DNA of 64,000 bases from Candidatus Coprovivens sp. (lineage in GTDB: Bacteria; Bacillota_I; Bacilli_A; RF39; UBA660): NCBI GenBank assembly GCA_051892935.1, contig JBJFGS010000024.1:87181-151180 (forward strand), written 5' to 3'. Below the pieces are notes generated by a model, which saw nothing but the letters and a program-made list of their open reading frames with translations, searched no databases and was not told the origin of the DNA. Of the stretch, positions 36,951-61,907 are shown in pieces (the first letter of the stretch is position 1; each line of letters starts with the position of its first letter). The translations under genes were made by a program, and so were the position numbers.

Positions 36951-38216
36951 TTATTTGTATCTTCGCTCTATATACGATACTATATCTTTTTCTGTATTTT
37001 CGACGTTTTGTTTTAATATTTGTTTTATCACATCATCTATAATAATTTTTAATTTTTTTCTTCGTATTCCTAATTGATTAATTTTTTCTATGTTAATTTG
37101 AAGATTTTCTGTTACCATAATATATCCAAGATATATCTTTTCAAGATTTTCTAATTCTTCTAATACAGTAAGTGCTAAATATGGGTTTTGTCCTTTATTA
37201 TCAGCTTTTTTTAATTCAAATAGTAGCTTTGTAAAATCAATTCCGTTTTCTTTAATAAATTGACATATTTTTTCTGGTTCTCTACTCAGTGTCATATCAT
37301 GTTTTTCAATTAGTTGTCTAACTATTTTTTTTGTTTTATTATCCATTTTTAATCTTGATGAAATATTATCAAATATTTGAGCACTTACTTCTTGATGACC
37401 ATAAAAGTGTCCTTTACCATCTTCTCCTATAAAGAATGTTTTGGGTTTTCCGATATCATGAAAAAGTGCTGCAAATCTTACAAAGATGTTCTTAGGTGTA
37501 TTTTCCAATACTACCAAGGTGTGTTCTAGTACATCGTATATATGCCAAGGATTCTGTTGTTCAAAGCCTTGTAATGGTTTTAGTTCAGGTAGTATTTGAA
37601 AAAATATATTAATATTATCTCTTATGTATTTTGCTGGATTATCTGTAATAAGAATTTGAATTAATTCTCTATAGATTCTTTCGGCAGCGACACTTTCTAA
37701 TAAATTTTTATTTTTTAACATTTCTTTTTGACAATTTTCATCTATAGAAAAATTCATTCTAGCAGCAATTCGAATAGCTCTTAGAATTCTTAATGGATCT
37801 ATTATAAAAGCTTCGCCAGTTTGTCTTATCAATGACATTTCTTTCTTGTTTAATGATTCTATTCCATTAAAAGGATCTATTATTCGACCATCCTTATCCA
37901 TTGCTATTGCATTTATTGTAAAGTCTCTATTACTTAAATCTTCTAATAATGAAGCACCTTTAAATTCTGATATCTCAATTTCTAAGTTGTTTAATCTCAT
38001 AACTCCAGTATTTCTATTATTATTTGGTTTCATTAGATGAAAATTTGGATATAAAGTTTTTATTTCTGTTAAAGGCATATTAGTGCATATATCAAAATCT
38101 TTGTTTTCTTTACCTAATAGAGAATCTCTTACTGCTCCACCTACTAAGTAAGCTTCATAACCTTTTTTATTTATTTCTTTTAATATATCTATTATACTTT
38201 CGGATACATTAATCAT
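36951..38216 (-). CDS. Class II CCA/poly(A) nucleotidyltransferase family protein with HD domain; flexible loop deleted
   Basis: VGGAVRD..LG....DFD, RDFTINA, DPLR, ERI..E, H.YDVLEH, LFHDIGK. Confidence 0.85.
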   Translation of the reverse strand: MINVSESIIDILKEINKKGYEAYLVGGAVRDSLLGKENKDFDICTNMPLTEIKTLYPNFHLMKPNNNRNTGVMRLNNLEIEISEFKGASLLEDLSNRDFTINAIAMDKDGRIIDPFNGIESLNKKEMSLIRQTGEAFIIDPLRILRAIRIAARMNFSIDENCQKEMLKNKNLLESVAAERIYRELIQILITDNPAKYIRDNINIFFQILPELKPLQGFEQQNPWHIYDVLEHTLVVLENTPKNIFVRFAALFHDIGKPKTFFIGEDGKGHFYGHQEVSAQIFDNISSRLKMDNKTKKIVRQLIEKHDMTLSREPEKICQFIKENGIDFTKLLFELKKADNKGQNPYLALTVLEELENLEKIYLGYIMVTENLQINIEKINQLGIRRKKLKIIIDDVIKQILKQNVENTEKDIVSYIERRYK

Positions 38217-38400
38217 AGAATCACCTATTTTTATTATATTATAAATCATATTTTACTTAAACTTTATTTACTATTACTTAACAACTAAAAACTTAATAAT
38301 TAATCATTGTTTATAAAATATGTTACTATATAAAATACACAAATAAAAATTGTAATATCTTACTATTTTAGTGTGATATAATTTTAATGAAGGTGATATT

Positions 38401-39738
38401 ATGTTAAAAAACAAGAAAGTCTTTATTCTTGGTATGGCAAGAAGTGGATTTGAAGCTGCTAAAATACTGGCTCCAGATAATACAGTACTAGTTACTGATA
38501 TGAATGAACAAGATTCTGAACAAGTTAAAATACTTGAAGATATGGGAGTCAAGATTGAAATAACTAAAGATCCAATATCTCTACTTGATGATACTTATGA
38601 TGTAATGGTTAAGAATCCTGGTATTAAGTATAATCATCCTGCTGTTGTTAAAGCTAAAGAGTTAGGAATAGATGTAATAAACGAAGTTGAACTTGCTTAT
38701 GGATATATGAATAAAGATGTAAATATAATTGGTGTTACTGGTTCTAATGGTAAGACTACTACTGTTACATTAATATACAATATAATGAAAGAAGCTGGAT
38801 TACCTGTATACCTTGGCGGTAATATAGGAACTCCATTATGTAACTTTGTTAAAGATATTAAAGAAAATGAATACTTGGTTATGGAGATATCTGACCATCA
38901 ACTATGTGATATGTATGATTTTAAGACTAATGTAAGTGTTTTAACTAATATATATGAAGTACATACTGATTTTCATGATTCACATGAAAAATATGTTAGA
39001 ACTAAAAAGAAGATATTTAATAATCATACTGAAAAAGATATTGCTATTATAAATTTTGATAATAAAGAAGCTGTTGATATTTCAAAAGATATCAACAGTA
39101 CTAAGTATTACTTTTCTAAAGAAAGTAAACAGAATGTTTATTTAGAAAATAATGCTATATATTATAGAGATAATAAAGTAATAGATTGTAGTGAAATCAA
39201 ATTAAAAGGTTTACATAATTATGAAAATATTATGGCAGCTATAAGTGCTGTTAAAGTATATGGAGTAGATAACGAAAGTATTTGTAAAGTACTTAAAACA
39301 TTTGGTGGTGTAGAACATAGAATTGAGTATGTTACCACAATAGATGGTGTTTCTTATTATAATGATAGTAAAGCTACTAATTGTGAATCTACAAAGATAG
39401 CATTAAAATCTTTTAATCAACCTACACTATTAATCTTAGGTGGATTAGATAGAGGGCATTCTTTTGATGATTTAACTCCTTGTATGGGAAATGTTACTTA
39501 TGTAGCTTGTTATGGGGAGACTAAAGCAAGAATAAAAGAATACTGTGATAAAATTGGTAAAGATTGTGGTGTGTTTGATAACTTAGTTAGTGCAACTACT
39601 GCTTGTTATGAAAAAGCTCAAAAAGGTGATGTTGTACTACTTAGTCCTGCATGTGCTTCATGGGATCAATATAAAGCATTTGAAGACCGTGGTAATGAAT
39701 TTAAATCTACTGTAAATAGTTTTAAGGGGGATAAATAA
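38401..39738 (+). CDS. murD: UDP-MurNAc-L-Ala:D-Glu ligase
   Basis: GVTGSNGKTT, GGNIG, HRIE, YNDSKATN, LSPACASWD. Confidence 0.97.
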   Translation: MLKNKKVFILGMARSGFEAAKILAPDNTVLVTDMNEQDSEQVKILEDMGVKIEITKDPISLLDDTYDVMVKNPGIKYNHPAVVKAKELGIDVINEVELAYGYMNKDVNIIGVTGSNGKTTTVTLIYNIMKEAGLPVYLGGNIGTPLCNFVKDIKENEYLVMEISDHQLCDMYDFKTNVSVLTNIYEVHTDFHDSHEKYVRTKKKIFNNHTEKDIAIINFDNKEAVDISKDINSTKYYFSKESKQNVYLENNAIYYRDNKVIDCSEIKLKGLHNYENIMAAISAVKVYGVDNESICKVLKTFGGVEHRIEYVTTIDGVSYYNDSKATNCESTKIALKSFNQPTLLILGGLDRGHSFDDLTPCMGNVTYVACYGETKARIKEYCDKIGKDCGVFDNLVSATTACYEKAQKGDVVLLSPACASWDQYKAFEDRGNEFKSTVNSFKGDK

Positions 39739-41117
39739 TGGCTCTTGATATAAAAAAGTATAAACGTATATATATGGTTGGTATTGGTGGTATCAGTATG
39801 AGTGGTATTGCCTTAATACTAAAAAGATGGAATTATGAAGTAAGTGGTAGTGATGGAGTTTCTTCTCATCAAACCGAATGGCTTATTAATAATGGAATAC
39901 ATGTTAATATTGGGCAAGTTAGTGAAAATATTACTGAAGATATAGATTTGGTTATTTATACAGCTGCTATTAAGCTAGATAATCCTGAATTAGTAAGAGC
40001 TAGGGATTTAGGTATTCCTATTATTGAACGTGGTGAATTCTTAGGAGAAATTACAAAGTTATTTAAAGATACTATTGGTGTTGCTGGTACTCATGGTAAG
40101 ACTAGTACAACAAGTATGGTAACTTGTTCATTTATTGAAGCTGGTTTAGATCCTTCTATACAAGTTGGAGCTAATTTACAAATATTAGATAATACTAATT
40201 ATAGAGTTGGTAATAGTGACTACTTTATAATAGAAGCTTGTGAGTATTGTGAAAGTTATTTAAACTTTCATCAGAAGAGTGCTATAGTTTTAAATATTGA
40301 TGATGATCATTTAGATTATTTTGGTAATATTGATAATATTGAAAAGAGTTTTCAAAAGTATGTTTCTTTACTTCCTGAAGATGGTTATTTAGTATTAAAT
40401 AGAGATGATGATAGATGTTATAATTTAAGAAATTGTAGTAAAGCTAAGGTTATTACTGTAGGTTCTACTAATGAAGCTGATTGGCATTATGATAATGTTA
40501 CATTTGATGATGATGGATATCCAACATATGATGTGTATAAGTTAGATGAATTTAAGGGAAAAATTACTTTAAAAGTTACAGGTATACATAATGTTTTTAA
40601 TAGTTTATGTTGTGTTGCTTTATGTGATGCTTATGGAATAGATGTAGAAATAGTTGCTAAAGCTTTATTAAAATTTACAGGAGCATCTAGAAGATTAGAA
40701 TATAAGTGCATGTTAAATGGAGCTAAAGTATATGATGATTATGGACATCATCCTACTGAGATAATGGCTACTATAAAAGGAATAAAAAATAAAAAATATA
40801 ATGAGTCTTGGGTTGTTTTTGAAGCTCATACTTATAGTAGATTAAAAGAACACTTACATGAATTTGCTCTTGCTTTAGAACATTTTGATCATATTATTAT
40901 AATTGATATATATGCCGCTAGAGAAGTAAATACTTATAATATAAGTGAACAAGATTTAATTGATGAGTTGAATAAGCTTGGTAAAGAAGCTATCCATATA
41001 AGTAAACATGATGAAGTTATCAAGTACTTACAAGATAATGTTAATGATGGGGATATTGTTTTAACTCTTGGTGCTGGTAATGTTACGAAGATAGCTAATA
41101 AGTTAATGGAACTATAG
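39738..41117 (+). CDS. murC: UDP-MurNAc:L-Ala ligase
   Basis: GIGGISMSG, AGTHGKTST, EACEY, DHLD, DDYGHHP. Confidence 0.97.
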   Translation: MALDIKKYKRIYMVGIGGISMSGIALILKRWNYEVSGSDGVSSHQTEWLINNGIHVNIGQVSENITEDIDLVIYTAAIKLDNPELVRARDLGIPIIERGEFLGEITKLFKDTIGVAGTHGKTSTTSMVTCSFIEAGLDPSIQVGANLQILDNTNYRVGNSDYFIIEACEYCESYLNFHQKSAIVLNIDDDHLDYFGNIDNIEKSFQKYVSLLPEDGYLVLNRDDDRCYNLRNCSKAKVITVGSTNEADWHYDNVTFDDDGYPTYDVYKLDEFKGKITLKVTGIHNVFNSLCCVALCDAYGIDVEIVAKALLKFTGASRRLEYKCMLNGAKVYDDYGHHPTEIMATIKGIKNKKYNESWVVFEAHTYSRLKEHLHEFALALEHFDHIIIIDIYAAREVNTYNISEQDLIDELNKLGKEAIHISKHDEVIKYLQDNVNDGDIVLTLGAGNVTKIANKLMEL

Positions 41118-45167: not shown

Positions 45168-48100
45168 TTATGCATTATTTTCTGATAGCCAGCTTTCAAA
45201 TATACCAAATCTAACATTTGCTATTTCTGACCATTTTAAGATATATTCGCATCCCCAGGAACTGACTACTAAATCTCCTGTGTTTGTTAATCCGGTAATC
45301 ATTATAGAATGTCCTGCACCTTCATTCCATGTGTTTGATTTTTGAATGCTTCCTATTCTTTTATTTTGAGTACCACTATTTATTACAGGATAAAAAGCAA
45401 ATTCGAATTGACCTTTGTTTTTTACAAATACATCTAGTTCTAATGTATGATTATCTGCCAGAGCAGAAGCTATTTGCTTTCTTACATTATAAACAGCAAG
45501 TGGTTGAGTATTTCCTATATTATCTATATAAATAGTTTTTGCTTCCCATGTCATAGGAATATTTTTACTTGCTAGCCATTGACTTAGTTGATAATTGTCT
45601 TTTCCATCTAATGTTGATACGGCAACCTGATGTGTATCGTCGTTAATAATGTAACCTGAAGTTGTATTATTACCATTTGTTATTTTCACTACTACATTTG
45701 GATTATTTTTGTTTAAAAAACAATATAAGTCTGTCATAATCAATTCACCATTAATTACTTTTTGACCATTTTCTATTCTATATAATTCATAACCAAAGTC
45801 TTTTTTAAATTTTTCTTCTTGACCATCGTATAGAACACATAATTCATTAACTAATGTTGCATAAGAACAAATGCCATGTACTCCTATTCCTTTTAAAAAT
45901 AATAATGCTTCACTTCTTTTCATATCTGGAAAATACGATAATACCGTTCTTTCTAGTTGGTTATATAGTGCTATATTTCTTGATGGATTTAATGCTAGCG
46001 AAAAAACACTGGTTTGATCTGTTCCAAATAATGAATATTGATGTAATACTTCACTACTTTTATTTATAATTTTTAAATATAATCCATTTAAATAATTTAA
46101 TCTTGTTATTACATCCATTCCTAACGGAATGTTGGCACTTTGTAATCTTTGAGATAATTCATTGAAACTATGTAATATGATGAAATTATCAACATCGGAT
46201 GTTTGTGAAAGATGACTTAATAGTGCGTTGTAACCATTACCATTTAGTAAATAGTAATCAAAGTATTCAGAAGAATAAATAAATTGTTGGCCTTGATGTT
46301 CAACTACTATAGGTGTTGTTAACATTTGAGTAAACGTTCTTAGTTCAACTGACTGAGATAAAATTGATGTTATTCTATTTTGTGTATTTATATCAAATCT
46401 ATTATATCCCACACTATATAAGTAGTATTTTAAGGCATTTATATAATCTTGCTTAGTTAACGATGGTCCAAATATATTCGGATAGTATTGGAAATTAGTA
46501 AAATAATTTAACATTTCATCACTGGTTATTAAAGAGTTTATTATACTTAACGGAACACTAATTGTACCTTGCCCCAATCTTGTCTCTACATTAAGTGATT
46601 GATCCCATTTGTATGTGTAGTTATTCCATGTTGGAATTTGATTTTGAATTGTCGGATTACTTGAAATGAATTGTGGAATACTTTGTGGAGTTTGACTAAG
46701 AATTGGTGTTGGTATTTTTGTAAGTTGATCTTCTTTATATTCTATTCTAAGTTCTAATCCGCCAATTTCATAAAATTTAAGTATTGCTTGATATTGTTCA
46801 TCTGTTAATATTTTTTTAGCTTTTAATTCATCTGCTTCACTTATTTTTGCTTTCTTTAAAGATTCTAATGATGATTCATACCATTCCCCAAGTGCTTTTC
46901 CTTTAGCTTCTAGTGGTAGTTCTATTATAAATTCTCTAGCAGATATATTATCATATGTTACTACTTCACCTATTCTTTCAGTTATAGATAACCATGTTGA
47001 ATTTGGTGCTGAGTTAGCATCTTTTAACGAAACTCTAACACTATATCTATCATTTTCAAATTGAGAATCAAATTCAACATTTAATTCACCTGTATGTGTC
47101 CTTTTACTAAAACCATTATCACAAATAAATTCTCCACCATCTTTAGTATGTGTTATGTCTGTAATTAATAATTCTTCTGCTTCCGAAGTCACTACTGGTT
47201 TATTAAAATCTGTTCCCCTACCATCATTAACTGTTACTTCTGTATATCCGCCTGCTTGCATGATAGTATGATTGTTTTTATCTACTGCCACTGGTGACAT
47301 TGCATCACCATCTCTAATTGCCAATGCTTCTAATTGTAAGCGTTTAAAAAATGTTTCATCTGATTCTAATCTTTTTATTAATTCATATGATTTAAAATCT
47401 ATTTTTTCTTGGCCTGGTGATGTATTGCTATTTTCGACATCAACTGCAGCTTGTAATTTTTTAACACATTCTATCCATTGATTTAATGTGGCAAATGATT
47501 GGATACCAGATGTTGACTTACTATGTGTCATAGCTAAAAGTGCAATTACACTTGTATCAAATTCATTTGAACTTTTCATTTCTCTTAAAATAGTTAGTGC
47601 TGAATTAAGTGGATGATTTTTTCTAACATAGTTCGCTTTAAATGACTCTAAGGTGTCTGGTGTTTTTCCTTCATCTGTGTTATTTAATACATCTTCTTCT
47701 GTAAGATTTTCGACAGATTTGAAAACTTTCTTTCCAGAAGAATCTTTAATGTAGGCATATCCACCTATCATACCAAAATCATGACCTATTGCGGATTTTA
47801 TCATTTCATAATAGTCTATACCATCCATTTTTGCTGCTACTTTTATAGCGTATTCTGCTACTAAGGCTGTGTGTGCTTGGGCATGTTCCCTAAAGTATTT
47901 AAAGAAAACATTATATTTGTCACTTGCTGCTTTCATGCCTGCATTGTATAATCTTTGCATTTCAGGAGTATCTGTCAATGCTTGTGCTATTATTGGTGCC
48001 ATATTAACACGTTTTTCTGGCGTCATGTCATTCATAATAGCATTAAGAGCTTCTCTCCCTAATTTTTTCACGACATTAACAATAAATCCTTCGCCATATT

Positions 48101-52409: not shown

Positions 52410-53033
52410 TTATAAAATTGAAATATTTAGATGTTTTTTTATTATTTCATTGTACTCAGCGAATACTTCTAAATATCCATTTTCTTTATTTTTTGCACTA
52501 AATAGCTTAACATTTGATAAGTATTTTTTTATTCTTTCGCTATCAAGTAGTTGTTTTGTATTCTTTAAACTTTCTTTTGAAATTGTAAAAGTTGCTGTTT
52601 TATTTTTTTCATTCTCTATTTGAACTACTATATAAGTTAAATAGTAGTATAGATAAATGCGATTTTTTGACATAGTTTCTAAAGTAAATTCGAAGATTTT
52701 ATCTATATTTAAGTCAGGGAACTTTTTATATAGTGAATAAAAACATTGAAGCATTTCTTGTGTGTTAGTAAAATATTCATCTTTATTTAGAGTTTTATCT
52801 AAAAATTTAGGACTTCCTTGTAATAGTTTTAAAAAGTCCTTGTAATTAGATAAACTTCTTAATATTGTTTCCTCATGATATGAAATTTTGTCGCTGATAT
52901 AATACCTTTTCAAGTCTTTATCTGTAAGAAATAGGTTTGATATATTAAGAAATTCTTCTTCATATTGTTTAATCTCTGTTTTAATTTCTTCTGTTTGTTT
53001 TAATAAATCTTCTTTTTTTAGTGATATGTTCAA
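52410..53033 (-). CDS. Hypothetical T7SS-associated protein (immunity or chaperone candidate)
   Basis: TTG start with RBS aaaggag; QIENE...ATFTI motif shared with its neighbour. Confidence 0.6.
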   Translation of the reverse strand: MNISLKKEDLLKQTEEIKTEIKQYEEEFLNISNLFLTDKDLKRYYISDKISYHEETILRSLSNYKDFLKLLQGSPKFLDKTLNKDEYFTNTQEMLQCFYSLYKKFPDLNIDKIFEFTLETMSKNRIYLYYYLTYIVVQIENEKNKTATFTISKESLKNTKQLLDSERIKKYLSNVKLFSAKNKENGYLEVFAEYNEIIKKHLNISIL

Positions 53034-53057
53034 CTTAAATCGCTCCTTTAATTAAGT

Positions 53058-53618
53058 TCAAAAATGATGACCAAATGACCCTAATTCTCTATCTTTTTCT
53101 TGAATCCATTGTTCAAAGTTTGGTAATGATTGTTCAATACTCTCTCTGTTTAGTTCAATTTGTTTTTTTAGTTCTATTAATATTCTCTTAGGATTTACTC
53201 TATATGGAGAATATCCAATTATTTCATTTTTTAATTGTACTTCTAAAATACTGACAACAGTATCTATTAATGTATACTCTTTTACGTGTTCACAAAGTTT
53301 TATTAAAGCATTTTCAAAAATTATTGGAATATCTTTGTCATTTTCTTCACTATAACAATCGTATAAACCATTTAACATTTTATGTATGTCTGCATTTCCA
53401 TTAACGTCTACAATTCCTGATGTTCCAAGTAGTCCTTGCATTAAAAAACCGCCTGTTAAACCTGTTCTTTTTTCTCCTTGAACAAATCTGTTCATAATTC
53501 TTGTTACGGGATCTTTCTTAAGCTCTTTTTTTATTCCTAAAGGATCTGCATTTCTTATTCTTTCAGATTCTTCTTCCTGTCTTTTTCTTTTTTCTTCTAA
53601 TTCTAATAAATTTACCAT
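53058..53618 (-). CDS. Hypothetical T7SS-associated protein (immunity or chaperone candidate)
   Basis: RBS ggagga; QLKNE...SPYRV motif. Confidence 0.6.
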   Translation of the reverse strand: MVNLLELEEKRKRQEEESERIRNADPLGIKKELKKDPVTRIMNRFVQGEKRTGLTGGFLMQGLLGTSGIVDVNGNADIHKMLNGLYDCYSEENDKDIPIIFENALIKLCEHVKEYTLIDTVVSILEVQLKNEIIGYSPYRVNPKRILIELKKQIELNRESIEQSLPNFEQWIQEKDRELGSFGHHF

Positions 53619-53632
53619 AATTTACATCCTCC

Positions 53633-54010
53633 CTAAAATGTATTAATTTTTTCTTTATTATTGTTTTTTAATATTTCTTCTAATTCACAGTTTGTTTCTG
53701 ATGCAAAAGTTATATGTTTGCAATCTTCATTAAATGATATTGCAAATTTCAAGTCATTTTGAGTTATATCAAAATTGAATCTTAATTCTGCACCTTTCAT
53801 TATTTCACTAAGTTTATTTTTAAAGCCTTCTGGAGAATATTTCCCTTCAACACTTTTCATTGTTCTGTCAGTATTTTCTTCAACATATACTGAGACTATA
53901 TTGAAATCATTTTTATATAGTAAGTCAATCATAGCGTGAAGACTTAATTCGCTTTGTTCATATACTTTTACAAAAATACCAGTATGTTCTTTTTCAAAAA
54001 TTTTATTCAT
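53633..54010 (-). CDS. Hypothetical T7SS-associated protein (immunity candidate)
   Basis: 125-aa alpha/beta-like ORF co-oriented in the effector operon. Confidence 0.6.
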   Translation of the reverse strand: MNKIFEKEHTGIFVKVYEQSELSLHAMIDLLYKNDFNIVSVYVEENTDRTMKSVEGKYSPEGFKNKLSEIMKGAELRFNFDITQNDLKFAISFNEDCKHITFASETNCELEEILKNNNKEKINTF

Positions 54011-54025
54011 ATCTATTTTCCTTTT

Positions 54026-54718
54026 CTATAAACTTAAATTAGTCTTTTTTTTTATGCTATTTTCATCGTATTCTATTAATCTACAATCTATATCAAGATT
54101 ATTATTCCATTCTTTCAGTAAGCGGCTTTTCATTCCTTCTATTATTTCTCGTCTCTTACAATAATCTTTAAACCATTCATCACTATTAGGATATTTTGAT
54201 TCATTTTCTATTCCAAATCTTAATCCAATTATTAAGCTGTCGATTGGAGCAAAATATATTGAACTTAATGGTCCATAATTTGTTTCGTATATTTCTTTTT
54301 GATTTGGAATAGTTAATACTTTTTTATATGTTGTTTCTATAATTTGATTTATAGTTTTGATATCTTGTTTTTCATGCGCTGATAAAAGATTATTTATTTC
54401 TTCTAATGTTAATTGTTCTATATAAAGTGTATTTCTAACATAGAAGAAATTATTAGATGATAATTTTTGATAAATATCTTTTTCTTCTTCTGATACCAGA
54501 GGATGGTTTCTATTCATATTTAATAAATATTGTTCAAATTCTTCTAAATGTAGGACTCTACTTAAATAATTATTTAAGTAGTAATAATATAAAGACTGAA
54601 TTTGTAAATATTTTTCATTTATTGTACTTTCATCAGCTAAACCTTTTTGTTTTGCTTCTTCGTAGTCTATTATATTTGGAAAGAATTCTTCGGTTTCATC
54701 TACTTTAATTGTTTTCAT
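54026..54718 (-). CDS. Hypothetical T7SS-associated protein
   Basis: RBS aaggtgat before MKTIKV; first gene of the effector operon. Confidence 0.6.
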   Translation of the reverse strand: MKTIKVDETEEFFPNIIDYEEAKQKGLADESTINEKYLQIQSLYYYYLNNYLSRVLHLEEFEQYLLNMNRNHPLVSEEEKDIYQKLSSNNFFYVRNTLYIEQLTLEEINNLLSAHEKQDIKTINQIIETTYKKVLTIPNQKEIYETNYGPLSSIYFAPIDSLIIGLRFGIENESKYPNSDEWFKDYCKRREIIEGMKSRLLKEWNNNLDIDCRLIEYDENSIKKKTNLSL

Positions 54719-54794
54719 TTTATCACCTTTTATCATCAATATTTAACTCAAAATATCTTTACTTTCTTTTATTATTTTACCATAGTTTTTACTT

Positions 54795-54826
54795 AAAAAA
54801 AATATCCAATTAAGTGGATATTTTTT
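54795..54826 (-). terminator. Intrinsic terminator after the second WXG-like gene
   Basis: aaaaatatcca-attaag-tggatattttt hairpin. Confidence 0.7.
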
Positions 54827-55625
54827 ATTCATCAAATATATTTTTTACTTTTCCAGTAATTACATTTTCATATTTGTATTTAATTTCATCTATTTTTTTT
54901 GATAAACATACTTTATTGTTTGCAGAAATTTCCATATATTCGAATATTTTTTTTATTGATTTATTAATATAAAATGTATATCCTTCTATAATACTACGAA
55001 GATTATAGTCATCTATCGAATATGCTAAATTGTTATACTTTTGTTGATAAGACGATATATTTTCTTCAATTTGTTTTTTTATTAAACTAATATTTTCTTT
55101 GGCAGTCACAATATTGTCAGAATTTATTCCTATGTCACCTTCGTCTGCATGATTAACAGCTCTAATATTATCTAAATTCAATTTTATTTTTGTACTTTCA
55201 GAACTCATGTAACTGTATTCTCTACGGTCTGCTCCTGATGTGTATTTGTAATTCATATTGGTATTTTCAGTTAGTTTGGTGTCGTACGATGGAGAAAAGT
55301 GAACTTTGTACATAGAATTAGCGATTTCTGCTTCTTCTGGGTCTTCACTTTTTCGGGCTTTTTCTAACCACTTATCATATCCATACATCATTCTAGATAT
55401 TTGATCATTTATATCTACTGCCATTTCGTGTGACATTGCTTTAATATCTTCGTCAAAGTATTTCATATAAAGTACCGCTTCTCCTGCAAACCAACCTTCA
55501 GATATATAATATATTACTTCTTCTTGAAGCTTTTTTTCTAAGTCTTTTGCTAGTTGGATTACATCAGTTTTCATTGAGGATACAATATTTTTAACTTTGT
55601 TTATACTTGTTTCGTTAAATGCCAT
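54825..55625 (-). CDS. Double-length WXG100-like protein, paralog B
   Basis: Helix-EGWFAG-helix N-terminal ~95 aa; paralogous to 55720-56619. Confidence 0.6.
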   Translation of the reverse strand: MAFNETSINKVKNIVSSMKTDVIQLAKDLEKKLQEEVIYYISEGWFAGEAVLYMKYFDEDIKAMSHEMAVDINDQISRMMYGYDKWLEKARKSEDPEEAEIANSMYKVHFSPSYDTKLTENTNMNYKYTSGADRREYSYMSSESTKIKLNLDNIRAVNHADEGDIGINSDNIVTAKENISLIKKQIEENISSYQQKYNNLAYSIDDYNLRSIIEGYTFYINKSIKKIFEYMEISANNKVCLSKKIDEIKYKYENVITGKVKNIFDE

Positions 55626-55649
55626 TTTTACACCTCCTTTGTATCGAGA

Positions 55650-55674
55650 AAAAGCATTCTTAGTGAATGCTTTT
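55650..55674 (-). terminator. Intrinsic terminator after the first WXG-like gene
   Basis: aaaagcattc-ttagt-gaatgctttt hairpin. Confidence 0.7.
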
Positions 55675-55719
55675 AGATTTCCTTTTTATTGCTAATTTAA
55701 TATTAGTTTTTTATACTTA

Positions 55720-56619
55720 TTAAGAAGTTGGAGTTGATGGGTTACTTTCAGCTGCATTATTAAGTTCTTGACTAATATTTGTAACAATTGTTTTACCATA
55801 TTTTTCAACAACAGCATTAATACTGCTTTCTAATGAACCTGATCCGTCAGATCCAGCCATAAAGTCAAACATAGCAGTTACTTGAGCCATAACAGCTTCA
55901 TAGAAAGTACTAACAGCTTGTGATTGTGTGCCACCTTGGCTATCTAACAATGCTGCTGATGCATCTAGAGAAGTTTGCATTGTAGAAATTGCAGTTGCGA
56001 TTGTTTCTTTTAATCCGCTTAATCCACTAGCAACATTTCTAACGTTTTCTTCATTGATACCTACTGAATTTCCTTCACCTACAGCTAATACGCCGTCAAC
56101 ACTTAATGTTACTGCTGTGTCTTCTGAACTGAAGAAATTATAAGTATATTCTCCAGATCCACCAGTTCCACCTTCGGTTTTATAATACATATTATCATTT
56201 GCTGCTTGAGATCCATCTCCAGTTACAGGTACAGGTTCGAAACCACCTGCTCCGTTAATTCCTTCTTGTGAAGTTTCTGGCTCTGTAGTTTGGATTGGTT
56301 CTGCAGTTCCTCCTAGTTGAGAAGTTCCATCAGCACTTCCAGATGTTGATGCTACCCAATAGTCATATGCTCCTGCTATATTATAAATAACTGTGTTTAA
56401 GCTTACTGCGATTTGACTTGTACATGCGTATACAGTTGAACCTAATGAATTCATAAAATATACACCTTCTGCTGAATACCAATTATCTTTTAATGCATCG
56501 ATAATTGAAGTTTGGAATGTTTCGCTAATTACTTCTTTAACATTAGCATAATCTGTTCCAATTTGATTAATAAGTTTAATTACTTCTGAACAATTTGTTC
56601 CTGCTGTAATATTTGACAT
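55720..56619 (-). CDS. Double-length WXG100-like protein, paralog A
   Basis: Helix-DNWYS-helix N-terminal ~95 aa, G/S/T-rich linker, second helical hairpin; directly downstream of the esaB-like gene. Confidence 0.6.
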   Translation of the reverse strand: MSNITAGTNCSEVIKLINQIGTDYANVKEVISETFQTSIIDALKDNWYSAEGVYFMNSLGSTVYACTSQIAVSLNTVIYNIAGAYDYWVASTSGSADGTSQLGGTAEPIQTTEPETSQEGINGAGGFEPVPVTGDGSQAANDNMYYKTEGGTGGSGEYTYNFFSSEDTAVTLSVDGVLAVGEGNSVGINEENVRNVASGLSGLKETIATAISTMQTSLDASAALLDSQGGTQSQAVSTFYEAVMAQVTAMFDFMAGSDGSGSLESSINAVVEKYGKTIVTNISQELNNAAESNPSTPTS

Positions 56620-56717
56620 TTTTTATTTCCTTCTTTCCGTTTGAATAAATATGGCCATCTATTCTTAACTTGATTGTATAATACTACCTTTTTATATTCA
56701 AGCTCTTTAACTTTTTT

Positions 56718-56987
56718 TTACAATTTTTTTACGTTTATTAAAAATAATTCACTTGCGTTTTTTATATCTGTATTAATTACTACTTCATTTCCTTGATAAA
56801 TTCTTCCGTTATCTTTATTTATTAAGCAAAAATCATCTTGGATATCGAATATGTTCCCATTTAAATCACTTATTGATTTTACTATTAATACTTTAACTCT
56901 CCAAATAAGTTCATTAACTGGGATAAATATATCGTAATATGTTCCAATTTCTGGAACAATTATTCTGACTAATATTTTATTCTTCAT
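56718..56987 (-). CDS. EsaB/YukD-like ubiquitin-fold T7SS component
   Basis: About 90 aa; YDIFIP, IKNASELFLI pattern; overlaps the essC stop codon. Confidence 0.7.
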   Translation of the reverse strand: MKNKILVRIIVPEIGTYYDIFIPVNELIWRVKVLIVKSISDLNGNIFDIQDDFCLINKDNGRIYQGNEVVINTDIKNASELFLINVKKL

Positions 56988-59900
56988 CGTCACTATCCTC
57001 TTCTGTTCCGTCTATTGCCTCTGTTGAAAAATTAATTAATTTGATAAATCTTGGGATTTGATCAACAATATTATAACCATGTTTATTATTTATTATTCTA
57101 GATAATTCATTACTTCTTTCGGCTAATCTTATAGATGTTTGCTCTGCTAGTCCACGACCTATCCATAATCCTTCGTAAGTGTTTTTTATGTTTGTATACC
57201 ACATATCAGTATCTACAGTTTTTATTCCTCTTATTCCGTCTATTACTAATAATTTTACACTATTAGATTTTTTTATTTCTTTAGTTAAGCTATCTAATAT
57301 TAATGTTTTAGATACAGAATCTTTGATGGCTTGAATTCCGTAGAATATTAATAATATAGTTCCACTTGGATTTTCTTCCTCGTTTCGTTTTTTGATAAAA
57401 TCTGTTATATTTTGAATCGTTTTATCCACATCATTATCAAAATAATTGTTTACTTTAGTTTTTATTTCAGGGTATAAAGATTTTATATCAACAAATATAG
57501 TGGAAGTTCCTTTTATATTTCTTACTATGTCTATAAAATAACTTGTGAAATCTCTTAATTCTTCTATTTTGTATCCACCAATAATAAATGATTGATGATT
57601 ATTCAAGTTAATTGTTGCTATATCTAATGTATCTCTGTAAACTCCAACAGGTATAGATGAAAGGTCTTTGATAGATGATTTTATATAATCGAAAGTAACT
57701 TGCTTTGGTAATTTTTTTATTTCTTTCGCAAAAACTGTTGCTTTTTCTTTTAGCTCTTTCGCTTTATTTCTAATAAACACCATTAATTCTCCGCTATCTT
57801 CTATTATTGTGGCTGTTTGGAATTCATGAACTGAACCATTATTTATTAATCCACGACCAAAATCTTCTTTTGGTATAAGTTTTGATTTTCCAACTACTGC
57901 GGCTCTATATGATGTGTCATCCTTCATATGTAAACATAGCGATTCTTTATAATATTGACCTGATCTTCTACCAATATTTGTTGTAGCAGCTAAAGATAAC
58001 CAAATATATATACCATATCTTGAACACTCTCTTATAATTGGAAGCATTGTATCATTAAAGTTCTTATATATTTCTAATATAGAATCATAGTTGTTGAATA
58101 ATAAAACTATTGCTGGTAACTTTTCAGGTGCATTTTTTAAATATGATTTATAGTCACCACCATAATTCATAAATTCTTTCTTTCTGAACTTTAATTCGTT
58201 TTTAATTAGTTTTAATGTATTTTTAAATTTTTCTTCTTCATCTACAAAAGTTACTTCTCCAACTTGTGGGAAATCACTAAATACTCCCAGTGATGCTGAA
58301 CCATAATCTATTATATAAAAATTTATTTCTGATGCATCGTGATTTGTAAATATTGAATATAAAATCGTTTTTAAGAAGAATTCTCTTTCTGATTCGTTTA
58401 TTCCATATATTAAAGTATTTTCATTTTCTACAACATTTAACTCTAATAATCCTTGTTGTTGACTTTCTGGAGCATCATATTCTCCTATAATGGCTTTAAC
58501 GTTATATTTACTGTGTGTAATTTTATATTTTTTTATTAAGTTTTCTAATAAAATTACTGGTGGCAAACTTGGTAACCATAGTCTTTTGGCTTTTTTGTTT
58601 GTCATGTCTGCTACTTCAATTATATTTTTTAATATTGCTGCTAGCTGTTCGCCATTTTCATTATTTTTAGATGATGAATTTCCTGCTTTAATGCTTTTTA
58701 CTATTGTTCCTGTTTCGTTAATTATATTAATGCTTTTATCTGAATCTTTAACTACTGTATCTGATGGAACATATTTTGCTCCTGCCCATCCAGATTGTGC
58801 TTGAACAAATATTTCGTCATTTCCTACTTGTAAATAGAATCGACCTGCTTCTTTAATAAATGCTGCTTCTGGTCTTTTTAGCATTTCTCTACTATCTCCA
58901 GCGTTTTGCACTTTTAAACATACTCTAAACTTTGTGTTTGTCCATATTTGTTCACTAACTTGTCCTGAAGGTTTTTGTGTGGCTAGTATTAAGTGTACAC
59001 CTAGTGAACGACCTATTCTGGCTATACTGATTAAGTCATTCATAAATTCTGGTTGTTGAGCTTTTAATTCTGCAAATTCATCACAAATTATAAACAAGTG
59101 TGGACATGGTTCATCTAATTCGCCATTGTGAAAATGTTGTTGATATTTGTAAATATCAATCGTTGATTCACCTGTTTTTTCTCTAGCTATATTAAATAGT
59201 TTTTGTCTTCTTTTTACTTCACTATCTATACTTACTAAAGTTCTATCCATTTCTGATTTATCTAAGTTTGTTATAGTACCTGTTAGGTGTGGTAGTATCA
59301 TGTTAGCAGATTCATTTTCAAATGCGTATGCTAGTCCACCACCTTTGTAGTCAATTAAAATAAATGCTATATCATCTGGACTATAATTTATAGCCATTGA
59401 TAGAATATAAGTAATAATAAATTCTGATTTACCTGAACCTGTTGTTCCTGCAATTAATCCGTGAGGTCCGTGGTATTTTTCATGAAGATCGAGAGAGATT
59501 AATTCTCCTCCACTTCCAATACCGATATTTGCTTTTAATGATTGTGTTGAATTATTATTTTTCCATCTTTCTAAAATATTTAATTGTTCTACTTTACCAA
59601 CTTTTTCCATTTCTAAGAATGTTAATGTTTGAGGAATTCCTGCTTCACTACTTTTAATTTCTACTGGAATATTTGATAAGTATTTCGCTACACTCATCAT
59701 ATTTACTCCGTATTCTACTTCATCATAGAATATTTGAGTTTCTTGTTTATTGTACGAATTTGTCATTATATTTGAGGTGTTATCACCTAACAAAATAAAG
59801 TTATTACATTTACTAGGTAATTTAGGTAATCGATTTTCTATAATTATCATACTTATACCTAGATTTTCTTCTATTTCTGTTAATACTTTATCAAATTGAA

Positions 59901-61575
59901 AACTATTAATTAGGTCCATACCATCTACTATTATTAAGTAATATGGTATTTTTTTTGAACTTTGTGGTTCGCCTTCTTCTGACTTTGTATATCTGTTTCT
60001 TATAATAGTTATTATTCTGTCTGCAAGTGTTCTCGCACTATATTCATCGCTAGAAAAGAACCTCATGGTTTTATCGTTTGAAAATGTGTGATTTAAATAT
60101 TTTAAATATTCAAAATCTTTTTCTCCTTCTTTGTCAGTAAATATCATAAATTTTAAGTCGTCATAACTATAAAAAATCATAAATTGCAATAAGATATTAT
60201 TAACAAATGCGTGAGTTTTGGATTTATTTCCCATTATAGCTGTTGTTTTATTTTCACTAAACGAATAACCTATAGGTACTTTTGTTAATATTTTATGTTC
60301 TTCGACCATTTCTTCTGCCATTGTTCTTAGATATGTTTTATCAATATTGTAAGGTTGATCTGAAAAATGAATATTTGCTTGTAGTTTTTCGTCTCCTACC
60401 CCTATTCTGGCAACAAGCAAGTCATTTTGATCTATTCTTTTGTCCCAGAAGTTTAAGCCTCGACGGTTCATTATTTTTAAACATTCTGTAATTCCAAATA
60501 GATTTTCTGTTAATATGTCTCTTTGTACTAAGCACTCGTCGTCAAGTTTCTTAGTTACTTCTTTCATATATGTAATATATTTATTTTCATCTTTTATTTT
60601 TTGATGTTTTCTCATTCTTTTTTGATATGCTCTAGTTAATGATGGCCATAATACTGCTGATGCAAGCATTAAGGTAGATGTAAGTAAACTCACCCAACTT
60701 TTCTTAAGAGTAGTTGTTCCTTCTACTATTTTTGATAGAACATTGGAAAACCTAACAATCGCCATAGTCACCATAGTTGCCATAGGTGCTAAAGTTAGTA
60801 AGGCTGGTAATTCCTCTTTTTCTTGATCCATTGGAGGATTTTCAATATTGAAATCTTTTTCTTCTATTTGTCGTCTAATTCTTGGTGATTTTGAATAGTA
60901 ATCATTAAGACTATACATATCTATATCTTGAATTTCTTCGTAGCTTTTTTCATCTATGTCAATTGGAAGTTGGCACTTTTTTAGTCCGCTTAATTCTTCA
61001 TTGATAATTAAAGTACCATTTGGATTATTAATTAGTAAAAAATTTTTTAAGACATATATATTTAATCCATAAATTTCTACAACATCTCCATATTGAACCA
61101 TTTGAGGATTAGAACTCTTTATTAAGTTATTTAAATATATTTTTTCATCACCATTCGTTTCAATATTAATTTGAAAATTTTCTGTTGCATAAAATTTAAA
61201 TTTTACATTAGGTACAAAGAACTCATAATTAAAATTATTATGTTCTTCTAGATTGCTAAGAAGAAAAGTTCCATTATAAGCATAAGTAGAGTATGTTTTG
61301 TCATATAATTCTGTTATTAAAATTAAATAAATATTTTTATCTCGTTGTATAGTATAAAAACAATTTGCTTCTACTTCTATGCTACGTTCTACTATTCCAC
61401 CAGATACTATTTTTGAAAAGTCTGTAGAATAAAGAACCCATTTACCTTTTCTGGCTTCTATGTTTATTAATTTTTTTTCTGAATTTTCGTCTACATCAAA
61501 ACTAAAACTACCAGATACTTGATTTGGTAATTTGAAATTGTACATAGTTTCATTATAGTATAGTGTTATTTTCAT
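56977..61575 (-). CDS. essC: Type VII secretion ATPase EssC (FHA-like N-terminus, 2 TM, FtsK/SpoIIIE domains)
   Basis: SPRI, two TM segments, HGPHGLIAGTTGSGKSE, IDYKGGG, DEFAELK, RIGRSLGVHLILATQKP. Confidence 0.95.
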   Translation of the reverse strand: MKITLYYNETMYNFKLPNQVSGSFSFDVDENSEKKLINIEARKGKWVLYSTDFSKIVSGGIVERSIEVEANCFYTIQRDKNIYLILITELYDKTYSTYAYNGTFLLSNLEEHNNFNYEFFVPNVKFKFYATENFQINIETNGDEKIYLNNLIKSSNPQMVQYGDVVEIYGLNIYVLKNFLLINNPNGTLIINEELSGLKKCQLPIDIDEKSYEEIQDIDMYSLNDYYSKSPRIRRQIEEKDFNIENPPMDQEKEELPALLTLAPMATMVTMAIVRFSNVLSKIVEGTTTLKKSWVSLLTSTLMLASAVLWPSLTRAYQKRMRKHQKIKDENKYITYMKEVTKKLDDECLVQRDILTENLFGITECLKIMNRRGLNFWDKRIDQNDLLVARIGVGDEKLQANIHFSDQPYNIDKTYLRTMAEEMVEEHKILTKVPIGYSFSENKTTAIMGNKSKTHAFVNNILLQFMIFYSYDDLKFMIFTDKEGEKDFEYLKYLNHTFSNDKTMRFFSSDEYSARTLADRIITIIRNRYTKSEEGEPQSSKKIPYYLIIVDGMDLINSFQFDKVLTEIEENLGISMIIIENRLPKLPSKCNNFILLGDNTSNIMTNSYNKQETQIFYDEVEYGVNMMSVAKYLSNIPVEIKSSEAGIPQTLTFLEMEKVGKVEQLNILERWKNNNSTQSLKANIGIGSGGELISLDLHEKYHGPHGLIAGTTGSGKSEFIITYILSMAINYSPDDIAFILIDYKGGGLAYAFENESANMILPHLTGTITNLDKSEMDRTLVSIDSEVKRRQKLFNIAREKTGESTIDIYKYQQHFHNGELDEPCPHLFIICDEFAELKAQQPEFMNDLISIARIGRSLGVHLILATQKPSGQVSEQIWTNTKFRVCLKVQNAGDSREMLKRPEAAFIKEAGRFYLQVGNDEIFVQAQSGWAGAKYVPSDTVVKDSDKSINIINETGTIVKSIKAGNSSSKNNENGEQLAAILKNIIEVADMTNKKAKRLWLPSLPPVILLENLIKKYKITHSKYNVKAIIGEYDAPESQQQGLLELNVVENENTLIYGINESEREFFLKTILYSIFTNHDASEINFYIIDYGSASLGVFSDFPQVGEVTFVDEEEKFKNTLKLIKNELKFRKKEFMNYGGDYKSYLKNAPEKLPAIVLLFNNYDSILEIYKNFNDTMLPIIRECSRYGIYIWLSLAATTNIGRRSGQYYKESLCLHMKDDTSYRAAVVGKSKLIPKEDFGRGLINNGSVHEFQTATIIEDSGELMVFIRNKAKELKEKATVFAKEIKKLPKQVTFDYIKSSIKDLSSIPVGVYRDTLDIATINLNNHQSFIIGGYKIEELRDFTSYFIDIVRNIKGTSTIFVDIKSLYPEIKTKVNNYFDNDVDKTIQNITDFIKKRNEEENPSGTILLIFYGIQAIKDSVSKTLILDSLTKEIKKSNSVKLLVIDGIRGIKTVDTDMWYTNIKNTYEGLWIGRGLAEQTSIRLAERSNELSRIINNKHGYNIVDQIPRFIKLINFSTEAIDGTEEDSDDEE

Positions 61576-61576
61576 G

Positions 61577-61671
61577 TGTAGACACCTCTATTCTATATAA
61601 TAATATCATATTTAAAGTGGTTATTCTATATTTTGAACATAAAAAAATACTCATTTTTTGAGTATTATTTT
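61577..61671. repeat. Direct repeat copy 2 (rpsR terminator, essC promoter and RBS)
   Basis: tgtagacacctctattctata...tatttaaagtggttattctatattttga...aatactcatt..tgagtattattt matches 45049-45143. Confidence 0.95.
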
Positions 61672-61674
61672 AAA

Positions 61675-61890
61675 TTACTTAACATTTGGAAGTAATGCCA
61701 TATATCTAGCCCATTTAATTTGTTGAGCTATATGTCTTTGGTGTTTAGCACATGCGCCAGTCATTCTACGTGGCATGATTTTTCCTTTTTCATTAATATA
61801 TTTAGAAACAATCATAACATCTTTGTAGTCAACACTTTTACCAGCACACATTTGGCATATTTTCTTCTTTTTACGATAAAATTCAGCCAT
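61675..61890 (-). CDS. rpsR: 30S ribosomal protein S18 (Zn-binding form)
   Basis: CQMC, VDYKD, GKIMPRRMTG.C..HQR. Confidence 0.98.
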   Translation of the reverse strand: MAEFYRKKKKICQMCAGKSVDYKDVMIVSKYINEKGKIMPRRMTGACAKHQRHIAQQIKWARYMALLPNVK

Positions 61891-61907
61891 GATTTAAATC
61901 CTCCTTT

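Follow-up and report, generated by a model that had tools for sequence, protein, structure and literature searches.

We analyzed a 64,000-nucleotide stretch of DNA (hereafter, the window) from the genome of a Candidatus Coprovivens species (contig JBJFGS010000024.1). The window contains a locus that probably encodes a working, lineage-specific, reduced type VII secretion system (T7SS). As we read it, the system consists of the membrane ATPase EssC (TsxC), a translationally coupled ubiquitin-like (Ubl) protein corresponding to TsxB, and a pair of helical proteins, g299 and g266. It would descend from the branch of subtypes T7SSd, T7SSe and T7SSj, and it would occupy a fixed chromosomal site. 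The reduced locus is widespread in its bacterial family. We infer that the locus functions and that its few parts suffice. Because a gut bacterium with a small genome has kept only the motor ATPase, a Ubl helper, and helical partners here, the locus is a good natural candidate for a T7SS in its minimal working form.

On the minus strand, positions 45168 to 61575 of the window hold nine open reading frames (ORFs), arranged head to tail (Table 1). In order of transcription, these are essC, the gene for the Ubl protein (91 amino acids, aa), g299, g266, four small genes (g237, g125, g186, and g207), and a giant gene. A reading of the window from its sequence only had listed the same parts (essC, an esaB/yukD-like gene, two WXG-like genes, four unknown genes, and a giant effector gene), and all nine are present. 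Other than EssC and the Ubl protein, none of the proteins (seven in all) matched a Pfam or NCBIfam family at the thresholds used. In a Kyte-Doolittle scan of the locus proteins, only EssC and the giant protein had a hydrophobic helix.

EssC and the ubiquitin-like protein

We considered the two core components first. EssC matches TIGR03928 over residues 226-1513 with 911.4 bits (the cut-off is 778.4 bits), and it matches FtsK_SpoIIIE at 3.2e-39. A hydrophobic helix lies at residues 256-276. The D1 P-loop (GTTGSGKS) is intact in the window's allele and is invariant in all 20 of the EssC proteins that we aligned (19 from the family and one comparator). Many further residues are also invariant throughout the clade. 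In D2, the Walker A motif (around residues 1058-1065) is degenerate in the window's EssC and its nearest relatives, with loss of the lysine: the window's protein reads GINESERE, while other members of the family have G..GSGKE. In the stretch of D3 that we inspected, none of the aligned EssC proteins has a P-loop motif.

The N-terminus of the window's EssC has no match to the FHA domain in Pfam, either at E <= 0.1 (with the first 240 residues) or at E <= 1 (with the first 225 residues). In the family as a whole, the cut-off of the FHA model is exceeded by 9 of 15 EssC N-termini, none of them from the window's sub-clade. Some N-termini from the family score as strongly on FHA as the EssC of T7SSj does (57 bits).

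The Ubl protein is harder to recognize from its sequence. Its match to the UBL model of Pfam is below the threshold, the YukD model of Pfam has no matches in the genome, and only 5 of 26 members of the Ubl family match the YukD model at E <= 0.1. A search of the Protein Data Bank (PDB) with a profile of the family found nothing useful. But an AlphaFold2 model, built from an alignment of the 26 relatives, has a beta-grasp fold with high confidence (a pLDDT of 92.4). Foldseek matched this model to ubiquitins and, at ranks 9 and 17, to the ubiquitin-like domain of EccD from ESX-5. The protein ends in ...NVKKL and does not have a C-terminal Gly-Gly. By its predicted fold and its position, rather than by the YukD model, the 91-aa protein is an analog of EsaB/TsxB. 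With EssC above its cut-off and the ubiquitin fold confidently modeled, the claim that the locus has both an EssC and an EsaB-like protein holds up.

The genome encodes a second full EssC, on another contig (C14:40855-45522). This essC is followed by its own Ubl gene (85 aa), three genes of about 102 aa, and genes for an RHS-repeat protein and a DUF4176 protein. One of the three ~102-aa genes is a sub-threshold match to WXG100.

EssA, EssB, and EsaA were not found

The sequence-only reading had described the locus as lacking EssA, EssB, and EsaA. We searched for these with hidden Markov models (HMMs), both in the rest of the genome and in relatives. For EssB, neither PF10140 (YukC) nor TIGR03926 has a match in the genome at E <= 1. 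For EsaA, TIGR03929 has no match in the genome. For EssA, the best match to PF10661 in the genome has 15.8 bits, which is below the cut-off. (The EssA family is short and poorly conserved, so members are easily missed.) We also built HMMs from the EssB, EsaA, EssA, and EsaB proteins of sister families, and these found nothing credible among the genome's 6546 ORFs. (The sets for these HMMs were chosen by gene position and are imperfect, since a few proteins were wrongly included: one of 392 aa among the EsaB proteins, and some of 57-122 aa among the EsaA proteins.) One candidate for EssB, a 572-aa ORF at C50:723-2441, reached 20 bits with a custom HMM. We rejected it: the match covers a Lys/Glu-rich linker and a transmembrane helix, with no kinase-like domain, and the ORF belongs to no Pfam family and adjoins an ABC transporter.

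The same pattern holds throughout the lineage. EssC has matches at E <= 3e-218 in all 24 of the other genomes of the genus in our first sample, and of the 101 genomes sampled from the order, 54 have an EssC that exceeds the cut-off. In contrast to EssC, YukC is over the cut-off in none of 27 genomes of the genus and none of the 101 genomes of the order, and the N-terminal model for EsaA is over the cut-off in none of the 101. The EssA model is marginally over its cut-off in 3 of the 101 genomes, in ORFs of about 600 aa. As a positive control, we searched for YukC in 300 genomes sampled from the class, and it is over the cut-off in 15 of these, none of which belong to the family. YukC adjoins EssC in 13 of the 13 canonical-type loci that we fetched, mostly in the order WXG-EsaA-EssA-EsaB-EssB-EssC. 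Since YukC is found beside EssC in sister families, the EssB model does work on close kin. Overall, as far as HMMs can tell, no credible EssA, EssB, or EsaA was found in the locus, elsewhere in the genome, or across the lineage, in agreement with the sequence-only reading.

Which genes do accompany EssC? We compared 29 EssC loci from the family, most of them with about 8 kilobases (kb) of flanking sequence on each side, by clustering proteins with BLAST. Only EssC and the Ubl protein are found nearly everywhere, and there is no conserved membrane protein. The Ubl gene accompanies essC in 27 of the 29 loci (it was not detected in L050 or L051). WXG100-like genes are present in 14 of the locus records. 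At the level of genomes, WXG100 has a match at E <= 1e-5 in 29 of the 54 EssC-positive genomes from the order and in none of the 47 EssC-negative genomes.

We also noticed ORFs of 638-715 aa in five genomes (G090, G061, G076, G108, and G091) that score 50-70 bits against the N-terminal model for EsaA, whose cut-off is 122 bits. In G076, G108, and G091, these ORFs do not adjoin essC. We presume that they may be YhgE/Pip-like membrane proteins.

The sequence-only reading had itself raised the possibility that the locus is a decaying fragment of a canonical one. In such a remnant of a fuller T7SS, essC would have been kept by chance or repurposed. The degenerate D2 and unrecognizable FHA region of the window's allele would fit such a remnant, as would the stub of another essC that adjoins the locus (see below). 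Nevertheless, we consider decay to be highly improbable, for four reasons. First, all nine ORFs are intact and tightly packed. Second, the catalytic P-loop of D1 and many other residues are invariant in the clade. Third, the genome has two full EssC genes, and EssC is found in every genome of the genus that we searched in the first sample and in over half of the sampled genomes of the order. Fourth, the presence of WXG100 is nested within the presence of EssC.

The locus probably belongs with T7SSd, T7SSe, and T7SSj

We then asked which of the described systems is closest to the locus. We built EssC trees with FastTree from 46 and from 63 sequences, and with a short IQ-TREE search from 35 sequences. 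(The wider alignment was made with a faster mode of MAFFT. The related loci were retrieved with an alignment of EssC; a query with a single EssC sequence gave no relatives.) In all three trees, EssC proteins of the family form a clade with support of 98-100, apart from the EssB-linked clade. The canonical EssC proteins form a separate clade with support of 100, and the window's EssC lies across a branch with support of 98. So the family has a well-supported EssC clade of its own, as the sequence-only reading had anticipated.

The neighbors of the family in these trees do not fit a "stripped-down" T7SSb, though, which is how the system had been framed. A clade of 18 rows (SH-aLRT support of 98) joins the family to loci from Clostridium cibarium and Bacillus sp. 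REN16, and it also holds two metagenome-assembled genomes (MAGs) from Eggerthellaceae and a relative from the same class (G350). The window's clade thus groups with T7SSj-like and Eggerthellaceae loci and not with canonical, EssB-linked EssC. (G350 was briefly a candidate for another minimal locus, L073, but it has a kinase and PP2C gene upstream.)

In C. cibarium and REN16, the loci begin with EssC, Ubl, WXG100, and WXG100. The genes that come next encode a DUF6382-FHA protein (J), a PP2C phosphatase (F), a TPR-repeat Ser/Thr kinase (D), a small membrane protein (K), and a membrane protein of 1717-1778 aa with immunoglobulin-like (Ig-like) domains (I). This arrangement fits T7SSj as described in the text of Garrett, Higginson and Palmer 2024 (PMC11217815). 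(We assigned L164/L165 from C. cibarium and L168/L169 from REN16 to T7SSj by comparing their Pfam content to that text.) The genomes of C. cibarium and REN16 also have no YukC. Like these loci, the window's family has an EssC, with an N-terminal FHA region, followed directly by a Ubl of the same BLAST cluster and then by a pair of genes that are probably of the WXG100 type, and their EssC proteins share the support-98 clade. The difference is that the DUF6382-FHA protein, the PP2C phosphatase, the TPR kinase, the small membrane protein, and the Ig-like protein were not found in the window's genome or in the family's loci.

Because the clade groups with T7SSj-like loci, any parts that were lost are more likely to have been of the T7SSd/e/j type than of the T7SSb type. 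We looked for those as well and did not find them in the genome or in the family's loci. DUF6382 (PF19909) is over the cut-off in none of the 101 genomes from the order, and its best match in the window's genome has 20.7 bits and a stop codon inside. TsjJ, TsjK, and TsjI have no homologs among the 6546 ORFs at E <= 0.01 (by phmmer, with both TsjI and both TsjK proteins as queries), and TsjJ, TsjF, TsjD, TsjK, and TsjI have none in the family's 29 loci at E <= 1e-3. The genome's best matches for the kinase and the PP2C phosphatase are a housekeeping pair, a PASTA kinase and a PP2C protein, encoded between rlmN and rsgA. A second kinase is encoded elsewhere. The genome also has five matches to penicillin-binding protein transpeptidases and five to Mur ligases, so the cell is walled, and loss of the wall does not explain the reduction. 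Overall, judging from gene content and the EssC trees, we would class the system as a member of the T7SSd/e/j branch that is reduced, and not as a reduced T7SSb.

Could the missing partners be encoded elsewhere in the genome, in a form that is too divergent, too small, or too unlike its counterparts to be detected? One candidate is a single-pass membrane protein; others are the PASTA kinase and the PP2C phosphatase, if they act on the FHA region of EssC. Three observations lend this idea some weight besides the presence of that pair and of the second kinase. The FHA region is still recognizable in most of the EssC N-termini that we checked from the family, which suggests that a phospho-threonine partner may persist; a walled cell would be expected to need help in crossing the wall; and the Ubl family, which is nearly invisible to the YukD model, shows that components can diverge. 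But in the 29 loci that we compared, which come from many genera, the only genes conserved in the 8 kb to each side are essC and ubl. Models built from the nearest canonical relatives came up empty, except for the lone 20-bit match to EssB, which has no kinase-like domain. And the kinase/PP2C pair sits in its usual housekeeping context. We therefore consider hidden partners to be unlikely, and we continue to favor a system that is truly reduced.

We also compared the locus to other systems. Like T7SSb (Ess of Staphylococcus aureus and Yuk/Yue of B. subtilis), it has an EssC that passes TIGR03928 and a ubiquitin-fold partner without a Gly-Gly tail. It also resembles T7SSb in having an arsenal of toxins (DUF4176, RHS repeats, and an ADP-ribosyltransferase together with an ADP-ribosylglycohydrolase occur in other loci of the family) and in the variation of essC and its downstream genes from one strain or species to another. 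Unlike T7SSb, it has no EssB/YukC, EsaA/YueB, or EssA/YueC that we could find, and its EssC falls outside of the EssB-linked clade. In the window's family, the Ubl gene follows essC, whereas the canonical Ubl gene precedes essB.

T7SSg, which the text of PMC11217815 calls relatively simple, has a similarly short list of parts: two WXG100 proteins, a Ubl, and the ATPase. As described there, T7SSg has an additional DUF5050 beta-propeller protein, TsgL. (We did not search for DUF5050.) According to the same text, the ATPase of T7SSg lacks FHA and the system adjoins Tad pilus genes, while most EssC proteins of the window's family have FHA.

The helical pair and the putative cargo

g299 and g266 are paralogs with 24% identity. 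PF06013 (WXG100) does not match either protein. We found only two relatives of g299 in a collection of 5.8 billion proteins, so the alignment stayed shallow, and the AlphaFold2 model of g299 is weak (pLDDT 60.6). The model has a helix at residues 8-44, a turn with a conserved Trp47, a helix at residues 50-92, a disordered linker rich in Gly, Ser, and Thr, and a second helical hairpin. Foldseek found no match to this model at E <= 0.001, and a search of PDB sequences with g299 gave nothing useful.

Nevertheless, comparisons of profiles (with hhalign) suggest a link to WXG100 by way of an intermediate family. In sister loci, whose EssC proteins fall in the same sub-clade, the Ubl gene is followed by genes for two families, X (about 208-260 aa) and Y (about 190 aa in most cases). 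For the N-terminal 75 residues of the g299 family, the match to family X has a probability of 92.7%. Family X, in turn, matches a profile of 25 WXG100 proteins with a probability of 93.2%, and family Y matches that profile with a probability of 95.7%. Compared directly to the WXG100 profile, the g299 family has a probability of 26-30%. From these transitive matches, g299 and g266 are likely to be WXG100-domain proteins with long extensions: they are 266-299 aa, and WXG100 proteins are usually about 100 aa.

This bears on the claim that the system has no EsxA. PF06013 has 19 matches in the genome at E <= 1, of which 5 are over the cut-off and none lie inside the nine-gene block. So the claim stands for the block, at least as far as PF06013 is concerned, but not for the genome, which has WXG100 genes elsewhere; and g299 and g266 probably have a WXG100-like N-terminal hairpin. 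Some of the WXG100 genes are away from any essC (at C24:43448-44024 and on contigs C36, C27, and C39) and may be parts of orphan toxin modules.

The giant protein has no match in Pfam, NCBIfam, or PDB sequences. Its N-terminus is a low-complexity region rich in Ser, Thr, and Gly. Residues ~220-960, which include hydrophobic Gly-rich helices, are conserved, and the C-terminal half is variable. The protein has three relatives, which share either residues ~220-960 or else residues 1453-1832 and the C-terminus. One of these relatives ends in a different domain, the nuclease EndoU (PF14436). Because of these shared parts and exchangeable C-termini, a modular layout by which polymorphic toxins are defined, the giant protein reads as a putative polymorphic toxin. 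For its last 448 aa, the leads from Atlas were C39-like/Mac-1 cysteine peptidases, which are weak matches (a score of 0.91, with 133-139 shared features). By eye, we read a possible papain-like pattern (Cys...His...SSWG) in the protein.

The giant protein resembles LXG toxins, which have Lap/WXG100-like partners, in its conserved front, its exchangeable C-terminal modules, its helical partner genes, and its proximity to essC. It differs from them in its low-complexity N-terminus, in being far longer, and in that no LXG domain was detected. We also considered whether the giant protein might be an envelope component like EsaA or TsxI. We rejected this idea because it has no signal-peptide-like N-terminus and no Ig-like domains, and the C-termini of its relatives differ.

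The four small proteins (g237, g125, g186, and g207) have no family match and no hydrophobic helix, and they were not detected in L172, a related locus that is described below. We propose that they may be chaperones, adaptors, or immunity proteins. Similarly, the 93-aa protein g93, encoded beyond the giant gene, is possibly an orphan immunity protein.

The locus is at a fixed site and its content is probably exchanged

The sequence-only reading had described a repeat-bounded block that moves as a self-contained cassette. The repeat is real: 69 nucleotides (nt) with 93% identity, at 45049-45117 and 61577-61645, which can be extended to 92 matches over 101 positions. But it does not look like the end of a mobile element. 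Rather, it is the leader of essC. The upstream copy is the intergenic region before essC, and the other copy leads into a stub of a different essC, 36 codons long, with its ATG at 45048 and its stop codon at 44938-44940. The stub aligns with the EssC N-terminus, with 14 of 35 residues matching (E = 2e-4, for a search space that was small), and its nearest N-terminus is that of G004, the closest species that we sampled (16 of 36 residues). Consensus scans did not call a promoter or a terminator inside the repeat, so we term it a leader instead of a promoter. The second copy of the leader may keep g93, the possible orphan immunity gene, expressed.

Table 1. Features of the locus and its surroundings, in positions of the window.
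Feature	Position	Strand	Description
Leader, copy 1	61577-61677	-	rpsR-essC intergenic region; AT-rich hairpin and T-run, with the GAGGTG ribosome-binding site just 5' of the essC ATG
essC	56977-61575	-	1532 aa; membrane FtsK/SpoIIIE-type T7SS ATPase
Ubl gene	56718-56993	-	91 aa; its first 17 nt lie within the end of essC
g299	55720-56619	-	299-aa helical protein
g266	54825-55625	-	266 aa; paralog of g299
g237	54026-54739	-	
g125	53633-54010	-	
g186	53058-53618	-	
g207	52410-53033	-	
Giant gene	45168-52361	-	2397-aa modular protein; putative polymorphic toxin
Leader, copy 2, and stub	44938-45146	-	Leader at ~45049-45146, then a 36-codon stub of a different (third) essC allele
g93	44612-44893	-	93-aa ORF 3' of the essC stub; no Pfam or NCBIfam family match
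Variable island	41107-61420		Lies between conserved flanks: a Mur-ligase pair at one end, and rpsR-ssb-rpsF-ychF with the initial ~155 nt of essC at the other

The surroundings of the locus suggest that its site is fixed and that its content is replaced. In the window, whose G+C content is about 25-36%, the genes rpsR, ssb, rpsF, and ychF sit upstream of essC. Downstream of the giant gene are g93, a zeta-toxin-like gene, genes for two glycosyltransferases, and the Mur-ligase pair. At least 5 other genomes of the genus have the same gene order, ychF-rpsF-ssb-rpsR-essC-ubl. When we compared the window to G004 with blastn, the flanks aligned with 90.5% identity over 38002-41106 and with 88.7% identity over 61421-63949. 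The latter region of homology takes in the first ~155 nt of essC. In the stretch between the flanks, nothing but the ATPase core of essC aligns (at 70%). The EssC proteins of the two species are only 45% identical, versus 94-97% for the neighboring housekeeping proteins, and the toxins in the island of G004 are different (for instance, an ADP-ribosyltransferase with an ADP-ribosylglycohydrolase, and a DUF4176 protein). Among the island genes that we scanned, there is no recombinase, integrase, or transposase.

One could still argue that the whole block inserts together as a mobile element whose ends are the repeats of 69-101 nt. Direct repeats do flank the block from essC to the giant gene, and the contrast between the divergent EssC and the nearly identical flanking proteins is what insertion of such a unit might leave. 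However, we have little confidence in this alternative. The synteny of rpsF, ssb, rpsR, and essC in at least five other genomes of the genus indicates a fixed site. The repeat contains a ribosome-binding site and an ATG and leads into an essC stub. The homology to the sister species enters essC itself, as expected for homologous recombination, and the scanned genes of the island do not include an integrase or transposase. We conclude that the repeat and stub are a trace of homologous recombination, either the replacement of one allele by another or a tandem duplication followed by a deletion. The idea of a self-contained moving cassette gives way to a fixed site next to rpsR, with content that is replaced between flanks of 89-90% identity.

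The sequence-only reading had also proposed one ATPase allele per set of effectors. A metagenome contig, L172, has the same gene order as the window, with the C-terminus of EssC at 44% identity, Ubl at 56%, a g299-like protein at 42%, a g266-like protein at 36%, and a giant-like protein at 34%. This gene order fits matched sets of ATPase, partners, and toxin, but it does not prove the proposal.

Proposed mechanism, caveats, and significance

In the mechanism that we propose, EssC would oligomerize in the membrane via two transmembrane helices to form both the motor and the channel. The Ubl protein, which would be translationally coupled to EssC, would bind the FHA/DUF region of EssC and stabilize the assembly, as YukD does on YukB in Bacillus subtilis. 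(As described in the available text of PMC12637312, YukD contacts the FHA and DUF regions of YukB.) g299 and g266 would form a helical pair that acts either as a secreted co-substrate or as a targeting adaptor, and the modular toxin encoded by the giant gene would be the cargo. The four small proteins might act as chaperones or immunity proteins. The clade would have descended from the T7SSd/e/j branch and would have lost, or never had, the kinase, the PP2C phosphatase, the DUF6382-FHA protein, the small membrane protein, and the Ig-like envelope protein. The content of the locus, including essC, would be exchanged between species by recombination in the conserved flanks, and each allele of EssC would travel with its own partners and toxins.

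Several points weigh against this view. First, the cell is walled, and it is unexplained how cargo would cross the wall without a protein like EsaA or TsxI. Second, the assembly (1.81 Mb, with 3.04% contamination) is 92.2% complete and split into 53 contigs, so this genome by itself cannot prove that a gene is absent. Third, partners that are very divergent or non-homologous can escape HMMs, and small single-pass membrane proteins of the TsxH/TsxK kind may escape a sequence search. Fourth, the window's EssC is a more eroded allele than others in the family, with its degenerate Walker A motif in D2 and its unrecognized FHA. Fifth, the status of g299 and g266 as WXG100 proteins rests on transitive matches, with a low direct probability, a low-confidence model, and no fold match. 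Finally, the trees were inferred with FastTree or with short IQ-TREE runs, and the sampling was limited.

How novel is the system? PMC11217815 describes subtypes c-j, in a catalog that was built from RefSeq. According to its text, TsxA, TsxB, and TsxC are a near-universal trio, and none of the subtypes c-j is made of the trio alone. The main text of PMC11217815, as available to us, contains no term that starts with "metagenom", "MAG", or "uncultur". A search of the literature, covering mostly titles and the starts of abstracts, turned up no description of a T7SS without all of the accessory parts. We also put forward a bolder proposal, tentatively and with somewhat less than even confidence: that a hexamer of EssC with one Ubl clamp might be a complete T7SS translocon in a walled monoderm, and that this family of gut bacteria with small genomes might carry an eleventh subtype, made of the TsxA/TsxB/TsxC trio only, with entire sets of essC, partners, and toxins swapped between species as matched units.

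If this were true, then all of the described subtypes would carry their pseudokinases, kinases, FHA proteins, and giant envelope proteins as additions for regulation or for crossing the wall, and not as parts of the channel. For the Firmicute T7SS, the questions of what forms the channel and of which components it cannot do without have yet to be settled. (The first structure of a T7SSb core, YukB-YukC-YukD, came only in 2025, going by the text of PMC12637312.) A set made of an ATPase, a Ubl, and WXG-like proteins, from an order of gut bacteria in which over half of the sampled genomes have EssC, would be a small construct for reconstitution and for structural work, and it offers a test of whether EssC alone is the pore. 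The locus also extends the subtype catalog of 2024, which by its own text was based on RefSeq (PMC11217815), into uncultured lineages. And it is a case in which essC itself is exchanged, along with the toxins, at a fixed chromosomal site.

Other observations

Among the related loci, we noticed a third arrangement, with shorter EssC proteins of 1250-1300 aa (L074-L077 and L079, from G368, G219, G028, G320, and G284, which are relatives in the same class). In these loci, two WXG100 genes and a gene for a protein of ~700 aa (usually with one predicted transmembrane helix) precede essC. In 4 of the 5 loci, there is a conserved block of five genes before essC, and a gene of ~80 aa usually follows it.

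Two loci have unexpected taxonomic labels. L083 is labeled "uncultured Muribaculaceae", but its gene order is that of a contig from the Bacillota family (G103:C13), and L098 is labeled as Deltaproteobacteria. These look like errors of binning or labeling, and not like T7SS in those phyla.

Finally, the variable island in the window includes a zeta-toxin gene at 42993-44189 on the plus strand. In this protein of 398 aa, an N-terminal extension of ~130 aa precedes a Zeta_toxin domain (residues 132-341, 3.5e-29), and no counterpart was found among the related loci that we compared, including the islands of G004 and G010. The conserved right flank of the island is formed by two Mur-ligase paralogs that lie side by side on the plus strand (38401-41117). 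By their Pfam domains, one is MurD-like and the other is MurC-like.

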